IMG/VR virus record: IMGVR_UViG_2541047437_000015
Length of the DNA: 21,659 bases
Origin: a virus
Lineage: Duplodnaviria > Heunggongvirae > Uroviricota > Caudoviricetes
Strand: one strand, 5' to 3'
Part shown: in pieces, positions 1 to 6,711 of the stretch
How positions within the stretch are numbered: position 1 is the stretch's first letter
How the letters are laid out: each line of letters begins with the position of its first letter
Notes under the pieces: model-generated
Told to the model about the DNA's origin: nothing
The model's database searches: none
Seen by the model: only the letters and a program-made list of their open reading frames with translations
Translations under genes and position numbers: made by a program

Positions 1-750
1 TAATCGTGACGTTGTTGAGCGTCCCGGAGTTCGCATTCACGTTACCGCTGATATCGGCATTTTTCGCCGTCAGCCGCCCGTCCGGTGTCAGGGAAAATGC
101 CGGAGGATTACCGCCGCTGGTAATGGTGGGAGCCGTCAGATATTTCAGGAACACTTCATTCATGAATATCTGATCGCCCTGACCAACAAACATCGGCTTT
201 GTGTTGCCATTCGCAGGATTAATCATCGCAATCCTGTCTGCTGCCAGCAGCACCTGACTCTGCATGCCGTCGGGGGTGTTCTCAATACCGGCACCGATAC
301 CCGCAATATAAAGGCGTCCGTCCTGCATCTGCTGCAGCTTCACTGCCCACATGCTGTTCAGGTTATTATTTGTATCAACCTGAACCTTCTGTATCTGCTG
401 GATCGCTGCACTCTGGTCTTCCAGTTTCTTATTGACGGTCTGTGTTATTTCATTGCTGACATCCGTTATGGACGTCCTGATTTCAGTCAGGTCAGGCGCA
501 AGCTGACCGTTATCAATCTGAGTCCACAACTCCTGAGCCAGATGGGTTTTCCCTATCTCTCCTTTGAAAAAATCCAGATAGCCTGATGCATCATCACTCG
601 GCTGACCGACAGCCTCCACAAATGCCGATTTGCCAACGGTGTTCACACTGCGGATATAAAAGTAATAATCATGGCCCGGTTTGATATTGATACTGGCAGC
701 TATCCAGTACAGCGCCGAGCCAAGATAGCGGGTATAGCGCGGCGATTTTT
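1..750 (-). pseudogene. Fragment of a lambdoid host-specificity / tail-tip protein J-like gene, runs off the window start; upstream part replaced by the Mu-like prophage end (boundary approximate, 730-775)
   Basis: Not in the ORF track because its stop lies outside the window. My own minus-strand translation reads ...[53 protein letters not shown]...[31 protein letters not shown]...[41 protein letters not shown]..., which I recognise as the C-terminal third of lambda-family J proteins. No plausible start or N-terminal ~800 aa is present. Confidence 0.55.
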
Positions 751-860
751 TTGATACCGATTTGCATTTCATTTGATACCGCTGAAAAACGCCGATACGC
801 AACTTATTTGATACTAAATCGGCGCTTTTCTTTTGAGTTTTAGAATGAGTTTTTAAGCGC
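751..860. repeat. Putative prophage right-end region (transposase-binding terminal repeats); three direct copies of TTTGATAC(C/T) at 751, 773 and 808 and a GAAAAACGC motif at 784
   Basis: Lies between the mom stop (861) and the J-like fragment. The stretch from 774, TGATACCGCTGAAAAACGCC, loosely resembles the Mu R-end terminus TGAAGCGGCGCACGAAAAACGCG as I remember it; the exact terminus is not determined. Confidence 0.4.
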
Positions 861-1598
861 TCATTCACTCTCTTTCAAACCAGTTTTAACTGTTTGTGGT
901 TTTGGGTAAGGCTGGACTTTGAATAGCTTTGTGTTGAGGCGTTTTCTGGCCCTCTTGTTCAGAAACCGGATGTAACGAAACTGTCGGAACTTATGAACAC
1001 TGGCTCTGTCAATATTAGCCCTCAGATGTTCACCTCGTTGTCCGCCTCGTTTAATGGCATTCCTGCAAATCTCGTGATACCACTCGCCATCAAGTTCATA
1101 GAATATTGATTCATGGCTGCCTACATAATCAAAATTGCTTGCCTGATACACGACACCAAGACAGCCACAACGCTCATCTGCAAACGACTGAACCCACTGT
1201 ACCTGCGGATAAAGCTGCCTGATTAGCTTGAGCGCGTAACTGATTGCCCTTGATTCGGAGTTTCTCGGCATACAGTCATGCAGCCATAGCCGGTTAAGCT
1301 CCATATATTCTCGGTTCTGCGTACCCGTTACGACGCGTGCACCACTGTTTGGGTTAAGGGCGTAACCCCATTGCATTACGCCAACAAGTTCCCGTTCTGA
1401 AAATATGCCCAGATGAAGGTAGGAGTTATTTACGAAACGGTGGCTGTAATGTTTATTGACGATGACCAGTCTGGCCAGCCAGCAACTTATTGTCTCAACC
1501 CGCAACTCACGGGAGCCATAACCAACGATATTGTCGTTATAGCGAATAAGTTCAGGCGTGCTGATGATTCGGGATGTGACTTGCTTTCTGTTCCCCAC
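861..1598 (-). CDS. mom: DNA modification protein Mom-like (adenine modification, anti-restriction)
   Basis: 245-aa ORF with GTG start at 1598 and AAGGAAA 9 nt upstream. It sits immediately downstream of and overlapping com and is the last gene before the prophage end, exactly as mom does in Mu. Function is assigned by synteny, not by a motif I can point to. Confidence 0.75.
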
Positions 1599-1752
1599 GA
1601 CAGGATTTCCTTGTGTATGTGGGGTGCTCTGTGGCGCTCGGAGATGTGATTTGATTGAGGGTTTTACAGCGCGGACATTTTACTTCCAGATAACTGAAAC
1701 TGGCCCGTGCCAGTAGCTTATTGCAGTGTCGGCACCGTATGTTTCGATACAT
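1552..1752 (-). CDS. com: Com-like zinc-finger translational activator of mom
   Basis: 66-aa ORF from ATG 1752 (GGAGG 11 nt upstream). [30 protein letters not shown] is a C-x2-C...C-x2-C finger closely resembling Mu Com. The track's 81-aa version starts at an upstream TTG and is probably over-extended. The 3' end overlaps the mom start by 46 nt. Confidence 0.8.
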
Positions 1753-1945
1753 GACCGCATAACCTCCTGCTTTGTTGTTGATGCCTTTCTCATGCAATCG
1801 ATCGACAAAAACGATCGATTCGATTTGTTTAATTGATACAACAAATAGATTGAAAAGTCATCAACAATGATTCAGGGAGGTGATTATTTACTTAAAGAAA
1901 ACGAAGAGTTAGGTGGTGAAAACGATCATAAAATGATCATTTTAT
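1753..1945 (-). promoter_or_regulatory. com-mom upstream regulatory region with four GATC (Dam) sites: 1800, 1813, and the palindrome GATCATAAAATGATC at 1924-1938
   Basis: GATC positions read directly from the sequence. In Mu the mom promoter is controlled by Dam methylation of clustered GATC sites (OxyR binding) and activated by C. No promoter hexamers are assigned with confidence. Confidence 0.5.
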
Positions 1946-2025
1946 TGACTTTTTATACAGTGAAGGTAGGATCACGCGTATATGTAGTATGTTTCAAATC
2001 AACAGGATACTACATAAAAGTGAAA

Positions 2026-2051
2026 CCCAGCATAGCTGGAACTATGCTGGG
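2026..2051. other. Perfect 10-bp stem-loop (CCCAGCATAG-ctggaa-CTATGCTGGG) in an AT-rich intergenic region
   Basis: Inverted repeat read directly; no U-tract follows on either strand, so it is not a canonical intrinsic terminator. Confidence 0.5.
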
Positions 2052-2163
2052 TCAATCTGTAAAAACTTGCATCAATGCTTTACTTCGAGCTCGTGGCGTA
2101 TCCTATGATATTCCCCGGTCTCCTGTAAAGCAGAGATGCATAAAAAGGAGATCTTTATCATGG

Positions 2164-2331
2164 ATGAAAGAGCCTGTTTGCCCTGCCTGTAAGACTCCCT
2201 TACAGCTCATCTATCGCCGTTCTCGATCTCAAAATGGCAAGACATACAAACCCAAAAATGCTTCCTGTTTCAGGATGCTGATATGTCCTGCCTGTTCTCC
2301 CAGGAGGGAAAATACACAAAACGTGCATTAA
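2164..2331 (+). CDS. Candidate small zinc-ribbon protein (55 aa, CPAC...x24...CPAC)
   Basis: C-terminal part of track ORF 1867..2331. ATG at 2164 preceded by AAGGAG at 2145-2150 (13-nt spacing, rather long). Two CPAC motifs 24 residues apart. It is on the opposite strand to every other gene here, so it may be spurious. Confidence 0.3.
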   Translation: MKEPVCPACKTPLQLIYRRSRSQNGKTYKPKNASCFRMLICPACSPRRENTQNVH

Positions 2332-2340
2332 CAAACTCAC

Positions 2341-2360
2341 CCGGCAGGGAAACCTGCCGG
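2341..2360. terminator. GC-rich stem-loop CCGGCAGG-gaaa-CCTGCCGG between convergent ORFs
   Basis: Perfect 8-bp stem with a GAAA tetraloop, located between the minus-strand 81-aa ORF stop (2370) and the plus-strand candidate ORF stop (2331). U-tracts are weak on both strands. Confidence 0.4.
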
Positions 2361-2369
2361 TCGGTATTG

Positions 2370-2615
2370 TTACATCATAGTACCGTCAGTTCCGGGCTGA
2401 ACCGGCTCTGGTTGCTCTACGGGTTGAGGATCATTTTCCGTGCTGTTTTCAGCCGGAGAACGGCCAACCATTCGGGCCAGCACTTCATCAACATATGCGT
2501 CGATTTGTGCCTCAAAATCCTTGCGAACCTGCGCCTTCAGCACGCGGTTCACTTCTTCAGAATAAAGTGCCTGTTTGACAAGCTCTTCAGTAACCGTGCC
2601 TTTAATCTCTGGCAT
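2370..2615 (-). CDS. Hypothetical acidic protein (81 aa), cargo gene
   Basis: ORF with strong RBS AAGGAG 8 nt upstream of ATG 2615. Composition looks protein-like (E/K/V/A-rich N-terminal half, Pro/Glu/Gln-rich acidic tail). No family recognised. Confidence 0.6.
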   Translation of the reverse strand: MPEIKGTVTEELVKQALYSEEVNRVLKAQVRKDFEAQIDAYVDEVLARMVGRSPAENSTENDPQPVEQPEPVQPGTDGTMM

Positions 2616-2650
2616 GAATATTCTCCTTTTGCAGGTATATTGCCCCGTTA

Positions 2651-2833
2651 TCAGAGCGGGGTCGGGTCGTTTGGGGATGACGGTGCCTGTGCTGTTTTAC
2701 TGAGTTTTTCAGCTGCCGCATCATCAATTTTACGGCGAATATAATTTCTGATGACCTTATAACCACCGCTCACCAGATATAACGCACTGACCACAGCGCA
2801 GAAATAAAGCAGCATTGTATGAACGAATGTCAT
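2651..2833 (-). CDS. Hypothetical small membrane protein (60 aa; one predicted N-terminal transmembrane helix followed by a basic segment)
   Basis: ORF with TAAGG-type RBS about 7 nt upstream of ATG 2833. Residues 4-22 (VHTMLLYFCAVVSALYLVS) are hydrophobic, followed by a KVIRNYIRRK basic stretch. Confidence 0.55.
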   Translation of the reverse strand: MTFVHTMLLYFCAVVSALYLVSGGYKVIRNYIRRKIDDAAAEKLSKTAQAPSSPNDPTPL

Positions 2834-2946
2834 ATAACCTTACCTTTGATATTGACTACATAATTCGTTATCGGGTAAAAACATCGAAGCGACTGATAAC
2901 CACTCCTTCGGGAGTATTTTTATTTTCCTTTATGGGTTAGGTAGCT

Positions 2947-2987
2947 CCCGCCAGCCATATCATGACCGGCGGGATTTTTTTATTCTG
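2947..2987 (+). terminator. Plus-strand-oriented intrinsic-terminator-like hairpin (CCCGCC...GGCGGG followed by ATTTTTTTATT), directly abutting the esterase stop codon
   Basis: 6-bp GC stem with a ~15-nt loop and a T7 run on the plus strand. On the minus strand, where the neighbouring genes lie, the A-run precedes the hairpin, so it would not act as a canonical terminator for them. Confidence 0.4.
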
Positions 2988-5019
2988 TTACCGCTTTTTT
3001 CACTTCCACCACAATGCTGTCAATCAGCACCGGGTAAGTTGCATTTTTTGTGATATCCGTTACGCGGAGTTTGTCCACCGGGAAAGTTCCTACTGGTGAC
3101 TGCGTCAGGGTAAACGCGGCACCATCCTGACCATCAATAACCGGAATAACCTGAAGGCTGTTATTTCCTGCAAAACGGAAGGCCAGCGTATGCCATTCAT
3201 TATCAAATGCACCAAAGGTTCCCAGTTTCTGGTTATTTGTTGCCACTTTTGCATTGTGGTACATCACATTCAGGTCTTTTGCGTCTGTCTGGATGTAGAA
3301 CGATGCCAGCAGATTATTCCCTGCATCCCCTGTCAGGGTGACACCCTGCGGCAGAGAGGAAACCGGCCAGTAAAGCCCCATGACATACTGGTTTGCCACC
3401 AGGTCGCCAGGTACTTTAAAACGACAACTGATTAAACCACCATTTTTCAGCAGTTCAGCACCAGTACCGGCATCATGATCCAGATACCAAGATGATTTAC
3501 CTGTTTCCTTGGTCAGTTTCATTGCCTTACCACCTGTGCCTCCTGCATCACTGATAATTTCAGCTTTACCGCCAGCCGGCTCCCAGCCCTGGGCTTTCAG
3601 ATTTCCTTCTGACTCACTGACACGATAAGACAGCAGTGTTGTGGTTACTGCTTCAGTTTCTGAAGGTGACGGCACTGGTGCTTCAGTTTCAGAAGATGGA
3701 ACATCGGCTTTTACTGTGGTTCGCCCCGCATGAGTCAGAACTGCCGTGGCCAGACGGTCGGAAATAATCCCACGACGTGCCCATGAACTGAAATGGCTGG
3801 CCCGGTCCGCAGATGTCCAGGTGGCGGCACTGTTACGCCACGTTGAGCCGTAATAACCAATGGATTCAATATCCGGGTCTTCTGCCGGATTGTTGGTGGG
3901 TACATTCGCGTCATTTTCATCTGTCATTAATGGAACGAAATGAATGTTTTTATCTGTTTTGTTTTTGTAGCCGCCATAGATTGCCTGGTATGCCGGTTCA
4001 TTTTTCTGTTTCCAGAAATACGTGGTATCGCCACAAATCCACGGAACGCCAGCAGCACTGCCACCGGTACACTGTTCCGCCTGTTCAGCCAGGTCTGCGC
4101 GGAATTTTTCCACCATCGCCAGAAACAGCGCGGAATGCTCCGTCGGCTTCGCATCAATATCAAACTCGCCCTGCATCCACACCACAGCAAGCAGGCGGTT
4201 TTTCGGGTTCTTCGCCAGTGCCGCTTTTGTCCGGCTGATTAAGTCCTTATACAGCGGCTTATCCACACCCCAGCGGGCTGAGTCCTCTGAAGCACCCGTG
4301 CTGTCACTGTACGTGCCGTCAGCACCCGCCGTGAATGCAGAACCACCACGGCAGCAGGGAACCAGCAGAATCCCCGCATCTGCCGGAATAAACGGCAGCA
4401 GTTTTTTGGCAATGTGAAGCCCCTGACCCACGGTGCCATATTGCCCTTTAGCCACATCCGCTTTCGGGTGATTTTTTCCACTCATATCCTGCACATCATG
4501 CAGACAGTGGTCGGCCAGAATGATGTCGTTATACTGACAGGCTTTACCTCCCGGCGTGACTGTACTGCGACGGGCTAACTGCATAATACGCGGTTCGGGG
4601 CGGTCATATGTCTCCGGCAGTGGCAGACCTTCACCGTAAGCCATACCGTTTGACTGACCAGCAAGAACCACCACGTAATACCAGGAAGGGGAGCTGGAAG
4701 CAGTTTCATTTCCTGACGGACGGGTATGTGTTTCAGCATTATCCCAGTCTGACGGTTCAGCAGTACCGGCAACATCAGCACTTAACGGAATGACCGCACC
4801 AATACCCGCTCCGGTAATTTCCACACTCGGATCACCGGATACTGGCCTTACCCACAGGCAATCCCGTGTATTAAAACTGATGAGACAGTCAGCAAATGTC
4901 ATTCCTCCTTTTGTTTCGGCCGGAGGAAAGGGAGCCTCAAGAAATGCCGCTGTACCACCGGAAACTTTAACAGTAAAGTTTCCGGGCATTGATGATAGTT
5001 GAACCCATTTGGACGTCAT
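2980..5019 (-). CDS. SGNH/SASA-family esterase, putatively a sialate O-acetylesterase-like (NanS-p-like) protein, with a C-terminal lectin/carbohydrate-binding-like domain
   Basis: 679-aa ORF. VVVLAGQSNGMAYGE contains the GQSN nucleophile motif typical of SASA/SGNH esterases. A Ser/Thr/Glu/Pro linker (SETEAPVPSPSETEA) precedes a ~200-aa beta-rich C-terminal domain. This architecture resembles the prophage-borne NanS-p esterases of E. coli. Confidence 0.6.
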   Translation of the reverse strand: MTSKWVQLSSMPGNFTVKVSGGTAAFLEAPFPPAETKGGMTFADCLISFNTRDCLWVRPVSGDPSVEITGAGIGAVIPLSADVAGTAEPSDWDNAETHTRPSGNETASSSPSWYYVVVLAGQSNGMAYGEGLPLPETYDRPEPRIMQLARRSTVTPGGKACQYNDIILADHCLHDVQDMSGKNHPKADVAKGQYGTVGQGLHIAKKLLPFIPADAGILLVPCCRGGSAFTAGADGTYSDSTGASEDSARWGVDKPLYKDLISRTKAALAKNPKNRLLAVVWMQGEFDIDAKPTEHSALFLAMVEKFRADLAEQAEQCTGGSAAGVPWICGDTTYFWKQKNEPAYQAIYGGYKNKTDKNIHFVPLMTDENDANVPTNNPAEDPDIESIGYYGSTWRNSAATWTSADRASHFSSWARRGIISDRLATAVLTHAGRTTVKADVPSSETEAPVPSPSETEAVTTTLLSYRVSESEGNLKAQGWEPAGGKAEIISDAGGTGGKAMKLTKETGKSSWYLDHDAGTGAELLKNGGLISCRFKVPGDLVANQYVMGLYWPVSSLPQGVTLTGDAGNNLLASFYIQTDAKDLNVMYHNAKVATNNQKLGTFGAFDNEWHTLAFRFAGNNSLQVIPVIDGQDGAAFTLTQSPVGTFPVDKLRVTDITKNATYPVLIDSIVVEVKKAVTE

Positions 5020-5118
5020 AATAATCAGCCTGTTCCTGAATAAACTGAATTATCATATCCACAGACCGATAAACGCCATTTTGCGTTAATTCAGTAAAGG
5101 CCCAACAAAGAGAGCGTC

Positions 5119-5679
5119 TTATTTTTCCGAAACGCTCGCAGGATAATAACGATAAAGGGTTGAAAGGCCGATATCAAAAATAAGTGCCACCTGTCTTCGA
5201 CTGACACCCCCGGCCAGTAAACGCCCGACCTGCTCGTATTGTTCCTGCGTGAGACGACGGGGTCTGCCGCCGGTTCGTCCCCTTTCACGGGCAGCTGCAA
5301 GACCAGCCCGTGTCCGTTCGACAATTAATTCACGCTCCATTTCTGCCAGCGCACCCATTATGTGAAAAAAGAAGCGCCCCATGGGGGTTGACGTATCAAT
5401 GTTGTCAGTAAGACTACGAAAATTTATCCCCTGTTGCTGTAATTCATCTGTCAGCGCAACAAGGTGGCGCATACTGCGCCCCAGCCTGTCCAGTTTCCAG
5501 ACCATCAGTGTGTCACCGGGTTTTAGTTTCTTCAGTGCCCGCTTCAGTCCCGGCCGCTGTGTCGTTTTACCACTCATTTTATCTTCAAAAATCTGCTCAC
5601 ATCCTGCACATTCCAGCGCATTTCTTTGTAAACCTGTGTTCTGGTCATTTGTTGATACGCGTATATAGCCAATCAGCAT
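5119..5679 (-). CDS. gin: Gin/Pin/Cin/Hin-family serine DNA invertase
   Basis: 186-aa ORF. MLIGYIRVSTNDQN...VWKLDRLGRSM...FRSLTDNIDTSTPMGRFFFHIMGALAEMERELIVERT is near-identical in pattern to Mu Gin, with the catalytic Ser in the RVST motif. RBS AAGGAAGG 8 nt upstream. Lies adjacent to a gix-like site. Confidence 0.9.
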   Translation of the reverse strand: MLIGYIRVSTNDQNTGLQRNALECAGCEQIFEDKMSGKTTQRPGLKRALKKLKPGDTLMVWKLDRLGRSMRHLVALTDELQQQGINFRSLTDNIDTSTPMGRFFFHIMGALAEMERELIVERTRAGLAAARERGRTGGRPRRLTQEQYEQVGRLLAGGVSRRQVALIFDIGLSTLYRYYPASVSEK

Positions 5680-5733
5680 GTATTTACCTTCCTTAAAAAG
5701 AGGTGGAAAGGCCTTTTAAAGCAGATATACGGC

Positions 5734-5760
5734 ATCCCTGAAACCTTCGGTTTACGGGAT
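5734..5760. other. gix-like recombination site A (gin-proximal): ATCCCTGAAACC-TTC-GGTTTACGGGAT, 12-bp half-sites with an atypical 3-bp spacer
   Basis: Imperfect palindrome read directly. The inside half GGTTTACGGGA is identical to the inside half of site B. It resembles Mu gix TTCCTGTAAACC-GA-GGTTTTGGATAA as I remember it. Confidence 0.6.
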
Positions 5761-6105
5761 ACTGTAAACAGGGCCGCGAATGCCCTGCCATCGAACGGAG
5801 CGGCTGTTGCAGCGAATAAACTCGCCACTCCAAGAAATATTAATGGTGTCCCATTTGACGGAACGCAGGATATAAATATTACATCGGGGATGACGCAGTC
5901 TGTGGCTGACTCACGTTATGTTCAAAGCATTCGAAGAGGTTCAAGGTCAACGATTGGAATGCAATATAATATTTTTGAGGTTCCTGACGGATGCGTACTT
6001 ACAGGGCTTGATGTCGCTGGTGATGGTAATGCAACGGTAACCGCATATTATCGACCTGTTCAGTTTCTGATAGATGGTTCGTGGAAAACAGCTTCCAGCG
6101 CATAA
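5749..6105 (+). other. Silent alternative tail-fibre C-terminal cassette (S'-variable arm); in frame from the gix core, no start codon of its own
   Basis: Translation from 5749 reads GLRDTVNRAANALPSNGAAVAANKLATPRNINGVPFDGTQDINITSGMTQSVADSRYVQS...YYRPVQFLIDGSWKTASSA, paralleling the C-terminus of the expressed fibre (GLRETVNKAADALPSGGTAVAANRLATPRNINGVPFDGTLDINITSGMTQSTADGRYVQ...YYRPVQIYINNAWRTVSSV). Track ORF 5890..6105 is its 3' part. Confidence 0.7.
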
Positions 6106-6184
6106 AAGTGCAGTAGTTCAAAAAACAGATTATCTGAATAAATATATGATGATTTTGTCTTTTCAACAAAAACAAGGTGAAATA

Positions 6185-6706
6185 ATGGAGCTTATTAACG
6201 TAAAACGATATTACCCGGAACACAAACCCTATGGTGAGGATGTTCAGTATTTCCAGAGTGAGGACGGAAGGGATTTTTATGAATCTATCCCGCTTTTCAC
6301 AAAGAAATACAAACTCTGTATTTCGCCTGTAACGGGTATTATCTGCTCTGTTGCTGAAGATGTCTCTGCTTTATATCCGGCAGGTTTTACTGTTGTTGAA
6401 GTGGACGAACTGCCGGAAGGTGTGAATATTGACGGTAACTGGCAGTTTTCTGATGGCCTGATATCAAAGGTGCCGGTAAACTGGAAGACGGTTGCTGAAA
6501 AGCGCCGCTCATCGCTGCTCCAGGAAGCCAACGAAACTGTGGATGACTGGAAAACGGAATTAAAACTGGACATGATTAGCGATGAAAATAAATTACAGCT
6601 GACGCGCTGGATGGCGTATATCCGACAGCTTAAAGAAATGCACTTTAATGATATTGCCAGTGAGGGGCATTACCAGGCGATTCCCTGGCCGGAAAAACCG
6701 GAATAA
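6185..6706 (+). CDS. Tail-fibre assembly protein (Tfa / Mu U'-like chaperone) belonging to the silent cassette
   Basis: 173 aa from ATG 6185 (AAGGTGA RBS). The C-terminal half has the pattern I associate with lambda-type Tfa proteins. It immediately follows the plus-strand fibre cassette. Track ORF 6074..6706 is over-extended at the 5' end. Confidence 0.75.
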   Translation: MELINVKRYYPEHKPYGEDVQYFQSEDGRDFYESIPLFTKKYKLCISPVTGIICSVAEDVSALYPAGFTVVEVDELPEGVNIDGNWQFSDGLISKVPVNWKTVAEKRRSSLLQEANETVDDWKTELKLDMISDENKLQLTRWMAYIRQLKEMHFNDIASEGHYQAIPWPEKPE

Positions 6707-6711
6707 TTCAG

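Follow-up and report, generated by a model that had tools for sequence, protein, structure and literature searches.

The DNA analysed here, a stretch of 21,659 nucleotides referred to as the window (IMG/VR record IMGVR_UViG_2541047437_000015), comes from the right end of a Mu-like prophage of the Sp18 type in Escherichia coli O157:H7 and is 99.9–100% identical to many O157 chromosomes. Its mom-com stretch is 100% identical to prophage Sp18 of strain Sakai, where the corresponding genes are ECs4992–ECs4998. Mitomycin does not induce Sp18 (PMC2669165). The prophage carries gin, com and mom in Mu order, and its terminal 100 bp hold repeated motifs that resemble transposase-binding sites (TTTGATAC). 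Its right end lies at position 733, exactly where the similarity of four relatives stops. Along the minus strand, tail and baseplate genes are followed by an invertible tail-fibre segment, gin, open reading frames (ORFs) of 679, 60 and 81 amino acids (aa), an AT-rich region of 0.5 kb, com, and mom. The subject of this analysis is the interval between gin and com and, above all, the 679-aa ORF, an esterase gene related to the NanS-p genes of lambdoid phages.

The interval is bounded upstream by gin (5119–5679, minus strand), which encodes a serine DNA invertase (Pfam Resolvase, 1.4e-51, and HTH_7). Downstream it is bounded by com (1552–1752, minus strand; Pfam Zn_ribbon_Com, 3.2e-12), of 66 aa in the Prokaryotic Genome Annotation Pipeline (PGAP) annotation, and by mom (861–1598, minus strand; Pfam Mom, 4e-77), whose product has 79.5% aa identity to Mu Mom. 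The DNA common to the window and Mu consists of gin (71.5% identity) and mom (71.3%) only, with none between them. The original prediction stated that Mu has no gene between gin and com, and the Mu sequence (NC_000929) agrees, as gin ends at 35673 and com starts at 35768, leaving a gap of 94 bp. Both phages have the three genes in the same order and orientation with a GATC-containing control sequence upstream of com; however, in place of the 94 bp of Mu, the window has ~3.3 kb with four protein genes and a candidate small RNA (sRNA). The extra DNA had been put at ~2.7 kb but actually extends from the gin stop at 5119 to ~1850, and includes an AT-rich 0.5 kb (1753–2340, 39.6% GC) that the earlier block lacked. 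Alignment of the Mu gin-com spacer to both block edges at the DNA level gave no clean insertion scar. Nothing beyond the GATC control motif and the Shine-Dalgarno sequence of com could be recognised.

Three co-oriented genes had been predicted between gin and com, and all three are found as ORFs at the expected positions with strong Pfam matches. The first, ECs4993 in Sakai (2980–5019, minus strand), encodes a 679-aa NanS-p-type sialate 9-O-acetylesterase (Pfam SASA, 6.5e-12; DUF6645, 2.4e-69), previously annotated as 'hypothetical' or 'DUF6645 domain-containing'. The second, ECs4994 (2651–2833, minus strand), encodes a 60-aa DUF1378 protein (Pfam 1.2e-38; pI 9.3) with one hydrophobic N-terminal helix in its hydropathy profile, read as a single transmembrane helix, in keeping with the predicted membrane protein. 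The third, ECs4995 (2370–2615, minus strand), encodes an 81-aa DUF826 protein (Pfam 2.8e-15; PHROG 311, 6.6e-30) that is indeed acidic, with a pI of 4.3. Two hairpins that had been described as bracketing the block both exist, but neither brackets it. One (2947–2987; −23.6 kcal/mol on the minus strand and −20.4 on the plus strand) directly follows the esterase stop codon and separates the esterase and DUF1378 genes; on the plus strand it has an A-run before it and a T-run after it, the T-run being present on that strand only. The other (2341–2360; −20.2 / −21.2 kcal/mol), a GC-rich stem-loop of 8 bp, lies between the DUF826 gene and a convergent zinc-ribbon ORF on the plus strand, and is likely a bidirectional terminator. 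A literature search on the function of DUF1378 and DUF826 found nothing relevant.

ECs4993 consists of an N-terminal domain, a Pro/Ser/Thr linker, a SASA/SGNH core, and a C-terminal lectin-like jelly roll. Residues 104–428 match chromosomal NanS (YjhS; PDB 3pt5, E 1.9e-118), with the catalytic domains alignable over 325 residues, and residues 459–674 match the C-domain of NanS-p (PDB 6yp6, E 1e-111). Chromosomal NanS differs from the window enzyme in having neither an N-terminal phage domain nor a C-terminal lectin domain, and is a member of the host sialic-acid regulon. From residue ~112 to the C-terminus, ECs4993 shares 74% aa identity with NanS-p of phage 933W. The GQSN and RASH/RSSH blocks that define NanS and NanS-p (PMC10462455) are kept, with GQSNG at 121–125 and RASH within ...DRASHFSS.... 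Also identical are the four aromatics of the proposed sugar site in the lectin-like domain, Y510, Y515, Y540 and F611, which are numbered as in vb_24B_21 and were located by counting along the 933W alignment. The 933W protein is a characterised enzyme (PMC8065619), and the 74% identity to it suggests that ECs4993 removes 9-O-acetyl groups from sialic acids (Neu5,9Ac2, mucin).

The trio as a whole has a counterpart in lambdoid and Shiga toxin (Stx) phages. In a PGAP-annotated lambdoid prophage the order is esterase, DUF1378, DUF826, class II holin, and lysozyme. In 933W the esterase gene is followed by an unannotated DUF1378 ORF with 53% aa identity to the DUF1378 protein of the window, and a published survey places DUF826 and DUF1378 ORFs between nanS-p and S. 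The block corresponds to this trio of the lambdoid late region, with its gene order kept and its spacing similar, set in a Mu-like genome. That DUF1378 and DUF826 have stayed next to the esterase in two unrelated kinds of phage suggests a functional link to the enzyme. The Stx/lambdoid NanS-p proteins (933W L0105/z1466; phi24B vb_24B_21, which is gp84) resemble the window enzyme in their SASA/SGNH core (80% aa identity) and C-domain (79%), in the retained catalytic blocks and sugar-site aromatics, in the DUF1378 and DUF826 genes downstream, and in being prophage-borne in enterohaemorrhagic E. coli (EHEC). The setting, however, differs. Lambdoid nanS-p lies between the late promoter/Q/stx region and the holin gene, whereas the window gene belongs to a transposable Mu-like myovirus, in the interval from gin to com-mom, and has no lysis cassette after it.

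The N-terminus is the other point of difference. Stx/lambdoid NanS-p starts with DUF1737, a capsid anchor in phi24B, whereas ECs4993 starts with an unrelated all-beta domain of ~80 residues (4780–5019, minus strand) that replaces DUF1737 and was found on esterases of Mu-like prophages only. The DNA similarity of ECs4993 to every Stx-phage nanS-p ends at residue ~112. Its first 80 residues gave no Pfam match and no match to DUF1737, and at 16–20% identity to the lambdoid N-termini they are unrelated to them. In an AlphaFold2 (AF2) model, the predicted local distance difference test score (pLDDT) is 71–86 for residues 1–70. For comparison, the NanS-p homologue gp84 of phi24B is an abundant virion protein, whose N-terminal DUF1737 domain binds capsid hexons as a hexamer, and most occurrences of DUF1737 are single-domain proteins (bioRxiv 10.64898/2026.04.10.717836).

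When the N-domain was used in a word-indexed protein search, the only matches were fragments of the same protein. An exhaustive HMMER search gave five matches among 1.84 billion representative proteins, with only P0008 being informative. In this protein the N-domain (29% identity) is joined to the beginning of a SASA domain. Its gene is located in a Mu-like prophage (L026), where it is preceded by baseplate genes, an invertible segment with fibre genes, gin, and a pair of small ORFs. A scan of viral contigs added a Mu-like locus (L043) with a 77% identical baseplate J, in which a 784-aa esterase with a 38% identical N-domain is encoded between the tail-fibre assembly gene and com. The N-domain in strain FORC_029 (L023) is 60–64% identical to that of the window, a divergence about the same as that of the rest of the protein. 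All of the homologues with inspected context (P0008 in L026, L043, and FORC_029 in L023) are in Mu-like prophages. Three of the four N-domain members match PHROG 4772 (E 6.8e-6 to 3.4e-3), which comprises 79-aa stand-alone phage proteins of unknown function. A tblastn search of GenBank phages with the most PHROG-like N-domain found only two Sp18-like inserts. Another gin-bearing prophage (L046) has an esterase with a different N-terminus, which matches the 70-aa PHROG 895 (3.9e-10).

By sequence, the relationships of the catalytic and lectin domains differ from those of the phage backbone. The core and C-domain of the window enzyme are closest to those of 933W, at the identities given above, while those of FORC_029 are closest to a lambdoid prophage of strain CFE299 (92% and 93% aa). 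The two Mu-like alleles share only 69% in the core and 73% in the C-domain. At the DNA level, FORC_029 and the CFE299 allele are 91.5% identical over 1,749 bp, from just past the stop codon to residue ~110 in the linker. Despite this lambdoid-like core and lectin, the N-domain and the DUF1378 and DUF826 genes of FORC_029 remain Mu-type. The domain-wise identities and the breakpoint in the linker indicate that a cassette of esterase and lectin was exchanged between lambdoid and Mu-like phages more than once, with the phage-type N-domain being kept each time.

The distribution of the block was surveyed in 5,426 complete E. coli genomes with a cut-off of at least 90% identity. The gin-com interval is present in 184 genomes, compared with 188 that have the Sp18-type baseplate region. 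It also extends to more divergent backbones. FORC_029, with 84% backbone identity, has gin, a 684-aa esterase, DUF1378, DUF826, com, and mom, and DETEC-S792 (75%) has the full block with a cytosine methyltransferase gene replacing mom. RM9245 (80%; L024 6524–8014) lacks both gin and the invertible segment, and its esterase gene lies 124 bp after the DUF4376 tail-fibre assembly gene with the rest unchanged. This gin-less arrangement indicates that what defines the position of the block is the fibre genes before it, and not gin. Mu, D108 and SfMu do not have the block, and a search of the complete E. coli genomes with the gin-com-mom region of Mu found the contiguous Mu arrangement in 44. A chimeric query of gin joined to com-mom, intended for counting cargo-free loci, was dropped as a Mu-type match would cover ~73% of it, below the 80% line. 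Beyond E. coli, 12 Mom-encoding prophages of other species lack the block and two of these have gin directly before com-mom. More distant Mu-like prophages have an esterase with a homologous N-domain after gin or tail-fibre genes. Within the Sp18-type lineage, the block is a fixed character and not a variable cargo slot.

We therefore read the gin-com interval as a lineage-conserved accessory module of Sp18-type Mu-like phages, with a three-domain esterase carrying a replaced N-terminal anchor as its main gene, and give this reading, together with the functional model proposed below, a probability of roughly 0.6. The closest competitor holds that there was no insertion at all. Here an esterase at the junction of the tail-fibre genes or gin with com would be ancestral to a wide enterobacterial Mu-like clade and lost in the branch of Mu, D108 and SfMu, with only the catalytic parts later overwritten by lambdoid alleles. 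This is a substantial alternative, although somewhat short of probable. L026 (gin 67% identical at the aa level) and L043 have an esterase with a homologous N-domain at the same position, and separate Mu-type lineages are seen both for the N-domain and for the DUF1378/DUF826 pair. Conversely, the 12 Mom-encoding prophages without the block fit poorly with an ancestral esterase. Furthermore, DUF1378 and DUF826 were not detected in L043, where a DUF1353-like gene is present instead.

The original prediction saw in the block a moron or an accessory hotspot expressed from the prophage, which is partly supported. Morons are a concept from comparisons of lambdoid phages, and denote additional genes that bring a promoter and a terminator of their own into phage genomes that are otherwise syntenic. 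The comparison holds in several respects, as the block is extra relative to Mu, D108 and SfMu, is homologous to an accessory module of lambdoid and Stx phages, has stem-loops after its genes, and has a lower GC content (48%) than the structural backbone (57.5%). It does not hold for variability. Morons are sporadic and absent from close relatives, whereas the block is neither variable nor strain-specific, being found in ~184 of 188 Sp18-type prophages and in 3/3 divergent backbones; within this lineage, related phages largely carry the same genes as part of their core. The GC comparison also depends on the reference, since the block is unlike the backbone but not unlike the neighbouring core genes gin (50%) and mom (47%).

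The source of transcription is relevant to the same question. A scan for sigma-70-like promoters found 5 sites against 7.2 expected by chance, none of which is upstream of the esterase, and no terminator was found between gin and the esterase gene. In RM9245, which has no gin, conservation begins only 25 nt upstream of the esterase ATG. These three observations make read-through from gin and/or the late tail-fibre operon a likelier source than a dedicated promoter.

Under classical lysogenic conversion, the repressed prophage would express the trio, perhaps through transcription that continues from a constitutive gin, so that EHEC gains the carbon of O-acetylated sialic acids and the N-domain has no role in the virion. 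The absence of the block from Mu, D108 and SfMu, its lower GC content than the backbone, and its orientation with gin with no terminator between them would all fit. So would the finding that lambdoid NanS-p alleles collectively permit growth on Neu5,9Ac2 (PMC8065619). Nevertheless, this explanation is doubtful. The presence of the block is invariant within the lineage, its GC content equals that of gin and mom, no promoter rises above chance, and in RM9245 the esterase follows late tail-fibre genes with no gin to read through from. A metabolic role alone would also leave the strict retention of the N-domain through recombination unexplained, and the lambdoid homologue is a virion protein (bioRxiv 10.64898/2026.04.10.717836).

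A model can be proposed for the specificity, expression timing and virion anchoring of ECs4993 as part of a lineage-conserved module. The esterase would be transcribed by the read-through described above, and its SGNH/SASA core would de-O-acetylate the sialic acids of mucin glycans at position 9, Neu5,9Ac2 among them, with the C-terminal lectin-like jelly roll probably directing the enzyme to carbohydrate. The Mu-type N-domain is hypothesised to have a phage-type-specific role equivalent to that of DUF1737, attaching the enzyme either to the Mu-type virion, the simplest candidate, or to some other partner from the phage. The enzyme would then act extracellularly after lysis, on or off the particle, and the host population would incidentally gain the use of O-acetylated sialic acids. 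The N-domain is replaced rather than lost, is limited to Mu-like phages, is related to small stand-alone proteins, and is kept through exchange, which fits such an adaptor model.

Several points weigh against this interpretation. The AF2 model was built from 4 sequences only and has a mean pLDDT of 64, and no known Mu virion protein resembles the N-domain. No mention of ECs4993–4996 was found in the literature searched. A phage-type-specific N-domain could instead reflect oligomerisation, secretion, or an interaction with the DUF1378 or DUF826 proteins. Finally, lambdoid NanS-p enzymes support the growth of lysogens on Neu5,9Ac2, so that a pure benefit to the host is possible (PMC8065619).

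A virion-bound esterase could also serve adsorption, deacetylating the O-antigen, capsule or colanic acid of the host bacterium from the baseplate or fibres rather than acting on mucin sialic acids. Such a role for NanS-p has been suggested before (PMC8065619). The position of the gene immediately after the tail-fibre and tail-fibre-assembly genes in every lineage would be in keeping with it, as would a weak match to a PHROG annotated 'tail protein' (4.4e-5). However, the catalytic and lectin domains are interchangeable with lambdoid alleles that are capsid-bound in phi24B, the catalytic domains are relatives of the sialate esterase NanS at the 60% level, and the N-domain has no similarity to fibre or baseplate adaptor domains, making a receptor-modifying role improbable. 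Decaying passenger DNA without a current function is very improbable indeed, for although the neighbouring 154-aa ORF is frameshifted in many relatives and one relative has a 640-aa esterase gene call without the first 39 residues, the three ORFs are intact across backbones 75–100% identical, the catalytic and binding residues are kept, and the N-domain diverges at the rate of the rest of the protein.

The enzyme family, the gene trio and the Sp18 sequence are all public. What is new is that a transposable Mu-like phage carries a NanS-p module whose esterase has a novel N-terminal domain, which adds comparative evidence for the N-domain as the phage-specific part, and no paper linking nanS-p to Mu-like phages was found in the literature searched. 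NanS-p esterases are among the most widespread accessory genes of Stx phages and were previously read as metabolic genes that benefit the host. A 2026 preprint has made one NanS-p a capsid decoration protein, and the occurrence of the same cassette in an unrelated Mu-like phage bears on that question. A different N-domain that has survived recombination with lambdoid alleles provides an independent comparative test of the idea of a phage-type-specific anchor, with a concrete domain and a concrete virion, that of Sp18, now named for testing it. The nanS-p copies of an EHEC genome, up to ~10 in number, make up one recombining pool across phage families. As to annotation, 'hypothetical proteins' of the ECs4996 type are artefacts of fusion that cover a small zinc-ribbon gene together with what is probably a non-coding element.

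This last point comes from the 0.5 kb next to com. The 154-aa ORF annotated on its plus strand (1867–2331; ECs4996, WP_115801860) is not conserved as a single ORF. Close relatives are 95–96% identical to it at the DNA level but have indels, resulting in 135-aa versions or PGAP 'frameshifted' calls, and more distant relatives (L043, L052) have in-frame stop codons. It was considered as a fourth cargo gene and rejected, since frameshifts or stop codons interrupt it in related phages. Near 2165, a 1-nt insertion joins the upstream frame to a 55-aa zinc-ribbon ORF (CPxC...CPxC; 2164–2331, plus strand), and by sequence comparison ECs4996 is a frameshift fusion over this small gene. The zinc-ribbon ORF has an AAGGAG Shine-Dalgarno sequence. 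In the distant locus L052, where aa identity is 43%, this sequence, the start codon and all four cysteines are kept and the ORF is followed by a terminator of its own.

Between the zinc-ribbon ORF and com lies a candidate sRNA gene (2005–2133, minus strand). It consists of a -35 element TTTACA (2129–2124), a -10 element TAGGAT (2105–2100), a conserved 5' part of 25 nt, a variable linker, a hairpin (2053–2024), and a U-rich tail. TTTACA and TAGGAT are invariant, while the 18-nt spacer between them is variable. Besides com and part of the esterase gene, this element of 127 bp is the only DNA common to the window and the distant L043. The hypervariable patch within it always folds to a hairpin of 10–13 bp; the surrounding DNA is otherwise ~99% identical among close relatives. 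Five hairpin variants have folding energies of -17 to -21.5 kcal/mol (z -2.7 to -6.5 versus shuffles) with visible compensatory changes. RNAalifold on a MAFFT alignment of the variants supported 2 compensatory pairs only, from 5–6 variants with a weak U-tail. With nhmmer the element was found in every Sp18-type locus, L043, L052 and, as two tandem copies, L047, whereas Mu and the 12 other Mom loci gave no match. No Rfam family matched window positions 1–8300, and a literature search on an sRNA of Sp18 found nothing relevant. The element at 2133–2005 is therefore best described as a candidate sRNA gene of ~80 nt, predicted to be transcribed toward com-mom and antisense to the 154-aa frame.

Variation is seen in this region as well. 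In FORC_029 the zinc-ribbon ORF is exchanged for unrelated DNA with a 66-aa minus-strand ORF (L023 3633–4069), located between the candidate sRNA and the DUF826 terminator, with the breakpoint at window position 2137. It is this sub-interval, and not the esterase trio, that behaves like a variable slot. The same prophage has a PGAP 'tRNA-OTHER' call in its head-morphogenesis region (L023 23457–23536), the equivalent of which lies beyond or at the edge of the window.

A broader hypothesis can be put forward tentatively. SASA esterases of temperate coliphages may be modular virion-display enzymes, each combining a small N-terminal adaptor, specific to the phage type, with an interchangeable cassette of esterase and lectin that the adaptor tethers to the particle and that is swapped at the linker among co-resident EHEC prophages. 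The adaptor would be DUF1737 for lambdoid capsids, a PHROG-4772-like domain for Sp18 virions, and a PHROG-895-like domain for another gin-bearing prophage. In the Sp18 lineage, the adjoining conserved and previously undescribed sRNA of ~80 nt, with its hypervariable terminator hairpin, would be in a position to act on the com-mom operon, which is toxic, or on the zinc-ribbon gene antisense to it. As a whole this is possible rather than probable.

Upstream of com, the counterpart of the mom control region of Mu begins at ~1850 in the window (ATCAATTAAA...ATCGATCG...GATCGATT). In the GATC control region itself, Mu has ATCAATTAAATCGATCG...GATCGATT and the window has ATCAATTAAACAAATCGAATCGATCG...GATCGATT. 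A perfect inverted repeat of 9 bp (AATCGATCG...CGATCGATT; 1796–1820) contains the only two GATC sites near com and corresponds to the Dam/OxyR control region of Mu mom, which has three. The promoter geometry may also differ from that of Mu, as the GATC repeat lies ~50 nt from the com start compared with ~75 nt in Mu. No dyad of the Mu C-protein type (TTAT-N6-ATAA) was found in the window.

The gene after com is itself subject to replacement. In some otherwise near-identical Sp18-type phages com is kept while mom is replaced by a gene for a DNA cytosine methyltransferase of ~350 aa (window 833–1585 versus L001 3102–4204, L025 1125–2177, and L043 10785–11837). The cases include the DETEC-S792 prophage and Mu-like phages inserted in the Stx phages LC727881 and LC727895, and swaps of the gene after com are known in other Mu-like phages (PMC3299994). 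Beyond the prophage end, the host flank of the window (1–731) is an interrupted fbpC beside frmR-frmA-fghA, as identified from the closest genome, whereas Sp18 of Sakai sits in sorM. The presence of the same phage at different chromosomal sites is consistent with transposition.

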